Position numbers and translations under genes: made by a program. This document shows positions 35,815 to 36,291 of a stretch of DNA of 64,000 nucleotides, one piece after another (position 1 is the stretch's first letter; every line of letters begins with the position of its first letter). The DNA is from Leptogorgia sarmentosa. Lineage: Eukaryota. A model generated the notes under the pieces. The model saw only the letters and a program-made list of their open reading frames with translations. It did not search any database and was not told the DNA's origin. The stretch is taken from NCBI GenBank assembly GCA_964658305.1, contig OZ210885.1, positions 992,001 through 1,056,000 on the forward strand, written 5' to 3'.

Positions 35815-36291
35815 AGGCTTCAATCAAGCAAGTTCATTTCAATATTCCATCGGCCTGTGTGGTTGACTTCCTGCCCAAACCCTAAATACCCTTGATGTTC
35901 CGGTCGAGCTCCTGAAGTACGAGCCTCTATAAACACTCCAGTGATCTCGCAGTTCAGTTGCCTGCACCAAAGCATACGCAAAACGTTCGGCTGCAGTGTT
36001 GATTTTCCTCGAATGTCAGTCGGATCCGAAGACCTCCCGAAGGAAGTACGAACGAGAGACGGCGCCATCCACCGAACGCACACGGCTGGCACGCGGGGAA
36101 AATCAACAGCACAGTCGGACATTCCGCGCATGCTCCAGTGCGGGCAGCTGAGCTGTGAAATCACTGGAGTGCTCACAGAGATTCCCACTTCGAGAGCACG
36201 GCTGAAACAACAAATGTATTCAGAATTTACACAGAAAGTTAATCACGCAGAGCAATGAAATAATCTCCATGCCCGTACTTCATTGAAGTCC
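35815..36291. repeat. Long imperfect palindrome: 182-bp gapless arms (35841-36022 / 36083-36264), 60-nt loop, weaker outer extension
   Basis: Paired coordinates sum to 72105 along the whole core, e.g. CACTCCAGTGAT/ATCACTGGAGTG and TGTTGATTTTCC/GGAAAATCAACA. Mismatches are mostly transitions. Confidence 0.9.

Follow-up and report, generated by a model that had tools for sequence, protein, structure and literature searches.

MITEs and foldback transposons are repeated, non-coding elements with long inverted arms around a short centre. Most of what is understood about long hairpin-RNA (hpRNA) genes comes from Drosophila, in which they act against selfish genes by silencing and have a rapid turnover. 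In the partial texts drawn on here, Drosophila hpRNAs are described as having arms of about 200 bp and occurring as tandem, local and dispersed copies with fast change in copy number, and hp-CG4068, hp-pncr009, hp-Nmy/Tmy and hp-ODox are given as precursors of Dicer-2 endo-siRNAs; the arms of fly hpRNAs can be under-represented in short-read RNA-seq (PMC10317233). For sea anemones and corals, the excerpted source proposes inverted duplications as the origin of endo-siRNA and miRNA hairpins (PMC7713132). Giant invertebrate pre-miRNA hairpins, such as lepidopteran mir-12, are described, again in part of the source, as holding an invariant mature miRNA amid diverged sequence (PMC12553114).

The DNA analysed here, called the window, is a 64-kb stretch of Leptogorgia sarmentosa contig OZ210885.1. 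This is animal DNA with a G+C content of about 37%, spliced genes whose style suggests a cnidarian-type origin, and many repeats; a long hairpin lies in a gene-free part of it. Read from its sequence, this locus may be one copy of a family of non-coding hairpin-RNA genes resembling endo-siRNA precursors, with a predicted transcript; we put this reading forward tentatively, at a little short of an even chance. The features of the locus were delimited as follows:

35644..36383, no strand assigned: the unit at its minimum size, from the extent of the relatives' alignment to the window
35651..35779, no strand assigned: tandem array of 3 units of 43 nt
35771..35840, no strand assigned: outer, decayed left arm (axis 72106), overlapping the last tandem unit
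35820..36242, minus strand: stop-free frame, the query that located the family, judged spurious
35843..35844, no strand assigned: register shift between core and outer stem, where the window lacks one base, placed from breaks between alignment segments
35843..36022, no strand assigned: left arm of the core stem, 180 nt, 50% G+C
35896..36258, plus strand: mirror stop-free frame from the ORF scan, judged spurious
36023..36082, no strand assigned: loop, 60 nt, 60% G+C
36083..36262, no strand assigned: right arm of the core stem, 180 nt
36095..36098, plus strand: G run near the loop, site of a recurrent 1-nt deletion
36266..36335, no strand assigned: outer, decayed right arm (axis 72106)

Positions 35843-36022 pair with 36083-36262 on the axis i+j=72105, over 180 columns with 0 gaps. 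Of these columns, 128 are Watson-Crick pairs, 44 are transitions (28 reading as G:U on the minus strand and 16 on the plus strand) and 8 are transversions, 52 mismatches in all; the longest perfect run between the arms is 12 bp. The earlier note had described a gapless palindrome with arms of about 182 bp, which the alignment bears out (129/28/16/9 over 182 columns, in the same order), and its count for the inner ~89 bp, about 22 mismatches including about 20 evenly split transitions, was reproduced exactly (67 Watson-Crick pairs, 11 + 9 transitions and 2 transversions in 89 columns). When the 18-mer array of the window was excluded, the core was the top gapless inverted repeat of the window (score 246; runner-up 76.5). 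Neither a third copy of the left arm nor a second copy of the hairpin was found within the 64 kb.

The extent originally given to the palindrome (35815-36291) takes in, besides the core, an outer part that lies on the next axis, 72106, and is a more decayed piece of the duplication. This outer stem of 70 columns (42 matches, 10 transitions and 18 transversions) stems from the same duplication, one base further out, and the base missing from the window at 35843..35844 is present in relatives such as P0004, P0010, P0012, P0019, P0026 and P0028. Both strands were folded, a check proposed with the first description, and gave z-scores of -14.6 for the plus and -15.4 for the minus strand; none of 100 shuffles reached the same stability. 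In the window copy the minus strand pairs 156 of 180 positions and the plus strand 144 of 180, and the minus strand folds better. By its pairing and fold energies, the locus is a long intramolecular inverted repeat with a stable predicted duplex, as is required of a hairpin RNA.

Among the genes of the window, an arylsulfatase-like one was picked out by eye from the ORF list, and the Pfam scan recognised a macro-domain exon as well as the final exon of a flavin monooxygenase (FMO). The FMO exon (30651-30963, minus strand) has a splice acceptor and is 80% identical to P0003; no earlier FMO exon was found in the 33 kb to its right, which suggests either an orphan exon or a very long intron. The hairpin may be intronic to this FMO gene, of which the window shows the last exon only. 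Other repeats of the window were recorded as well. Positions 51886-54300 hold 134 near-perfect copies of an 18-mer with open frames (EISITT on the plus strand; SQLLLI and ISVVID on the minus strand). An element at 40240-41124 resembles those of the Helentron type. It contains a TCTG microsatellite, inverted repeats of 35 bp (40367-40401 / 41090-41124) and, at 40438-40483, a near-perfect palindrome of 46 nt. Further short palindromes (41426-41488, 45639-45694, 60864-60970 and 31468-31678) have ordinary or transversion-rich mismatches, 43443-46349 and 58857-61480 are inverted copies of one gene whose fibrinogen-C-like match is weak, and 38621-43433 is taken up by a complex tandem repeat of ~600 bp.

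Contigs of four runs were aligned over 33400-38200, and variant figures were taken from the best-supported rows. Among the variants listed, the arms carry four substitutions (three transitions and one transversion) and the 1-nt deletion at 36095, which is present in runs X2 and X6 and in relatives P0013, P0017, P0019, P0021 and P0028. The gapless register reported earlier is therefore not a fixed trait, since two of the four runs carry this deletion. In run X11, which bears a third organism label, a single contig of 183 nt covers the left arm, ungapped and with 5 differences. As side observations, this contig (35844-36026) nearly coincides with the ends of the left arm, and most of the right arm is without a contig in that run; X1, X2 and X6 all carry 29 letters at 37171-37173 that are absent from the window; and the short repeats at 36835-36935, 35405-35483 and 37747-38200 have high contig depth under organism labels A and B, 37908-38200 being uncovered in X11.

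The core stem is prone to transitions and poor in indels. For comparison, a further 17 duplicate pairs of the window were scored; their 6825 columns hold 247 transitions (50%), 248 transversions and 114 gap events, or 0.23 indels per substitution. The initial remark that other duplicates here are full of indels is thus confirmed. Where contigs of three runs depart from the window, transitions make up 50-56%. Across the reference rates, the probability of 44 transitions among 52 mismatches is 2e-7 to 1e-5 (2e-7 with the duplicates), and the core would be expected to hold about 12 indels where 0 were observed (P = 6e-6, with arm ends picked post hoc). The outer stem served as internal control: transversions make up 18 of its 28 mismatches versus 8 of 52 in the core (p = 1.5e-5), and because this outer part is rich in transversions, the transition-only pattern is confined to the inner stem and does not extend to the whole duplicated piece.

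Several mutational sources were considered and rejected. CpG decay, which the earlier note had named as a simple explanation, does not fit: 14 of 44 transitions are in CpG context versus 58 of 170 columns, and 5 CpGs are kept in both arms. An ADAR footprint was not detected (5' G at 14 of 44 changed versus 16 of 64 unchanged columns), nor was the one-strand A-to-G change with 5' G depletion that would mark an ADAR-hyperedited, retro-integrated RNA. A cytosine-deaminase context was not supported in the core columns. Changed C columns do have an excess of 3' C (17 of 44 versus 7 of 62).

The stop-free minus frame, used as query, matched 14 relatives among 1.84 billion representatives (41-75% identity, best E 4e-29). 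A profile search and cluster look-ups extended these to 43 records, which are ORF translations from public assemblies and all align at the hairpin. The possibility that the locus is single-copy, held open at the outset, no longer applies: related loci form a family. The relatives share both the arms and the loop, their alignment spans 35644-36383 (P0004 is gapless over 160 codons), and copies are mutually 2-38% different. On each of four contigs, 181-654 kb long, 3-4 variants occur, records having been grouped by matching contig size. The 43-bp tandem repeat noticed upstream is present at 35651-35779, and relatives hold the same repeat core in units of ~32-46 nt; the core occurs at least 2 times in seven records and has 18 matches in P0028 (18 or more units), and array length varies in run X2. 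Beside the unit, neither strand has AATAAA or ATTAAA, the nearest being at 35627.

Searches for the family elsewhere were carried out on several collections. Protein-guided scans of viral contigs found no relative, pattern scans gave short chance matches in 6 viral contigs in which the hairpin is absent, two patterns had 0 matches in metagenome contigs, and blastn against phages returned 30-35-nt matches only, outside the hairpin. The Rfam scan of 34500-37600 (to E 5) gave no match and no self-cleaving ribozyme, which sets the locus apart from viroid-like or ribozyme-bearing rod RNAs, and the family is without an entry in Rfam 15; the only Rfam match of the window is one tRNA gene, to the left of the hairpin. 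The titles and abstract openings that make up the literature consulted contain no description of such an element; Dfam, Repbase and cnidarian small-RNA supplements may list it.

For comparison between copies, the letters of the relatives were read back from proteins where the amino acid fixes the base, codon positions 1 and 2 pairing together. The 43 records were represented by 23 sequences, one per near-identical group, and 19 of these yield determinable pairs. Family kappa reaches 4.3 within the stem compared with 2.5 outside it (LRT p = 0.015); for the loop alone it is 3.6, near the stem value. The sequence of the loop is as conserved among relatives as that of the arms, yet the loop accepts indels: five of nine distinct indels fall either in the loop or in the inner 20 nt, where 22% of the coverage lies (p = 0.03), and four of nine in the strict loop (p = 0.05), a shared ~11-nt loop deletion being scored as one event. 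A core-stem indel is present in 4 of 23 representatives, in a sample where detection as ORFs favours gapless copies.

Of the 548 determinable pairs of the relatives, 406 are Watson-Crick; another 54 are G:U on the minus strand and 47 on the plus strand, and 41 are transversion mismatches. In slid controls the Watson-Crick share is 20-32%. Two or more Watson-Crick pair types occur in 9 of the 103 columns with data, and where Watson-Crick columns of the window have changed on both sides, 19 of 20 cells (in 9 columns) are Watson-Crick again, a figure that overstates the upkeep of pairing because the cells share ancestry. A count of concerted changes did not show significant covariation, with 11 distinct changes versus 9 in swapped controls (p = 0.41; counted as cells, 38 versus 14). 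Simulation from a perfect ancestor on a midpoint-rooted tree (22 representatives) reproduced both the concerted excess (P = 0.2-0.3) and, by independent decay, the 26% mismatch of the family. In a tree of the separated arms (12 representatives and the window), all left arms group in one clade and all right arms in its mirror image (bootstrap 69), and the arms thus go back to one old inverted duplication, inherited without homogenisation. On this two-clade tree, arm mismatch within a copy is 0.275 versus 0.336 simulated (P = 0.028), that of the window is 0.30 versus 0.38 (P = 0.025), and the concerted excess has P = 0.07, or 0.025 at kappa 2. No 20-nt bin is invariant among the relatives at determinable positions (best 9/13; the stem base is thinly covered). 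These sequences are consistent with a pairing constraint across the family and lend it moderate, not decisive, support. The selection on a fold-back register suggested in the earlier note can be upheld to the same moderate degree, through the transition bias of the stem, its fewer indels than in the loop and arms closer than independent evolution would leave them.

The wobbles are shared almost equally between the strands. G:U cells number 54 on the minus and 47 on the plus strand in the family (p = 0.55) and 28 versus 16 in the window (p = 0.10), so that the bias toward one transcribed strand that folding energetics (not a formal criterion) would lead one to expect was not observed. If selection acted on an RNA of one strand, G:U pairs of that strand should be favoured and A:C should fare no better than any other mismatch; in the window, however, A:C outnumbers transversion mismatches even on the strand that folds better (16 of 24, p = 0.001-0.005). 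Strand-equal wobble implies either that both strands are transcribed or that A:C is tolerated nearly like G:U. Clustering of the sign of the G:U pairs along the stem is borderline (P = 0.054), and no difference in sign between copies was seen (p = 0.28). A post hoc count placed the G/C letter of transition mismatches in the left arm in 16 of 22 cases in the outer half of the stem and 6 of 22 in the inner half (p = 0.006).

Editing was considered as a further route to tolerated A:C pairs. According to the parts of the sources available, the A:C mismatch is a preferred ADAR context (PMC10713624) and corals heavily edit non-coding duplexes (PMC5850803), so that editing to I:C could rescue such pairs. 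The A:C sites of the locus are without 5' G depletion (7/28 and 7/16), and the context adds no support to rescue by editing. Two accounts of the symmetric wobble are left, namely that both strands are used or that purine-pyrimidine wobbles are tolerated for their geometry.

Under the hairpin-RNA gene reading, an inverted duplication would have given rise to a transcript folding into a 180-250-bp duplex. Selection for pairing would purge indels and transversions and let purine-pyrimidine wobbles (G:U and A:C) pass, and the register would be kept. The unit would be copied locally together with its repeat block, as fly hpRNAs are. Dicer is predicted to cut the duplex, with endogenous siRNAs as the likely product, and the repeats are putative promoter or protein-binding sites. 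No source gene or target of the arms was found in the window, in Pfam or in a longer-protein search with another left-arm frame. Further points against this reading are the strand-equal wobble, a covariation excess short of significance, and a stem that within the species is no better conserved than its flanks.

The symmetry of the wobbles could also indicate a new family of animal hairpins that work two ways, both strands becoming single-stranded and each folding into a 180-250-bp stem, with a variable array, built on a conserved ~30-nt core, in control. The single strands are proposed to come either from two opposite transcripts or from the two polarities of a mobile or replicating element. 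We consider this unlikely; if true, two-way hairpins would be a structured-RNA system of an early-branching animal, with strand-symmetric wobble as their signature.

Also unlikely is the explanation that the locus is a fold-back cis element of an old mobile element (a non-autonomous transposon, a retroelement UTR or an integrated replicon) whose repeats bind a protein. Both polarities of such an element pass through a single-stranded stage and both must therefore fold, which accounts for the strand-symmetric wobble; the several copies per contig and the repeat-rich neighbourhood agree with it, as does the behaviour of relatives past the right arm, where P0006, P0014 and P0015 diverge from the window and P0004 and P0017 match it. 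However, the locus has no recognisable ends or target-site duplication, and no transposase or reverse transcriptase frame was found when 17 ORFs were compared with Pfam; of the MITE and the recombination site named previously, no ends were seen either. The 64 kb hold no second copy, and the viral contigs no relative. At 80% likeness, contigs do not pile up on the hairpin, unlike on nearby high-copy repeats (in X1, depth 22-34 versus 14,513 at 36781-36941, depth being a weak guide to copy number). The arms, moreover, were not regenerated, left and right arms forming the separate clades described above.

A functionless palindrome, whose arms occasionally correct each other as hairpin templates so that bulges and transversion mismatches are lost and wobbles stay, would require neither strand preference nor sequence conservation, in line with what was observed, and would explain why the arms are closer than the tree predicts. 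Template switching makes no distinction between kinds of mismatch when it homogenises a tract, and G:T and A:C are readily dealt with by mismatch repair; these habits run opposite to the bias needed. Perfect runs no longer than 12 bp and the separation of left and right arms into clades also speak against such correction, which leaves the joint keeping of repeat block and loop with the stem unaccounted for. Template switching between imperfect inverted repeats is itself an established process, as far as the excerpted sources go (PMC8604942, PMC3820800), and we hold this explanation to be rather unlikely.

We hold the same of the view that the locus is a neutral relic of one inverted duplication, spread by segmental duplication, its bias reflecting a local mutation process or ascertainment. 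Mirror clades are what such a relic would leave, the mismatch load matches independent decay under one rooting (midpoint), covariation is not significant, and polymorphism in the hairpin resembles that of its flanks (divergence from the window in the four runs 0.6-2.7% versus 1.4-3.1%, all p > 0.05). Against it stand the improbability, in the DNA of this window, of the transition share (2e-7) and of the lack of indels (6e-6), the decay of the outer piece of the same duplication with transversions, and the lack of a CpG, ADAR-like or other convincing context signature. If the locus is neutral after all, transition-rich gapless arms alone do not prove RNA selection.

That the frames code for a small protein, be it on one strand or on both, and that coding constraint shaped the arms, is very improbable and largely refuted: both strands are stop-free as first noted, with one open frame each (120 and 140 codons on opposite strands, P ~0.01 by column shuffling), and the relatives are recorded as called ORFs, but mismatches are spread evenly over codon positions (20/16/16, without codon periodicity), position 2 changes as often as position 1 (0.245 versus 0.20), frameshifts are frequent among the relatives, whose ORFs come from either strand, neither frame survives the 36095 deletion found in 2 of 4 runs, Pfam gives no match, Atlas matches for P0004 stay under 0.8, and the locus accordingly evolves as non-coding DNA.

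Returning to the hairpin-RNA gene reading, a multi-copy hairpin family with up to ~35% divergence in a cnidarian-type animal offers a test of the birth of small-RNA genes by inverted duplication. That G:U and A:C are tolerated alike is puzzling under any reading, and would point to use of both strands, to structural tolerance beyond what folding energies provide, or to a repair bias of palindromes.

Compared with MITEs and foldback transposons, the locus is similarly long-armed, short-centred, non-coding and repeated; in contrast to MITEs, its homology passes beyond the arms into the repeat block and flank (35644-36383) and does not outline a bounded element, no target-site duplication was seen, and its transitions are not concentrated in CpG context. 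It shares with ADAR-edited duplexes a long imperfect duplex with many A:C mismatches, and differs in that 5' G depletion is absent from its A:C sites on either strand. With giant pre-miRNAs, as the partial source portrays them, it has in common a highly paired stem of hundreds of bases, but no 20-nt bin of the locus matches the invariant ~22-nt duplex of such hairpins (best 9/13 at determinable positions), and Rfam gives no match. With the inverted-duplication precursors of Hexacorallia (PMC7713132) and the hp-RNA clusters of sponges (PMC6211395), as these sources present them in part, it shares a single inverted duplication that has gathered mismatches and, in the window copy, still folds; unlike them, its stem far exceeds a pre-miRNA, it is multi-copy and no extended target homology was found. 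From the Drosophila hpRNAs, again within the partial text, it differs in that no source gene was found, a tandem-repeat block is linked to it and its wobble is strand-equal; like them, this locus, known from its DNA alone, is a non-coding inverted repeat with arms of similar length and expansion into several copies.
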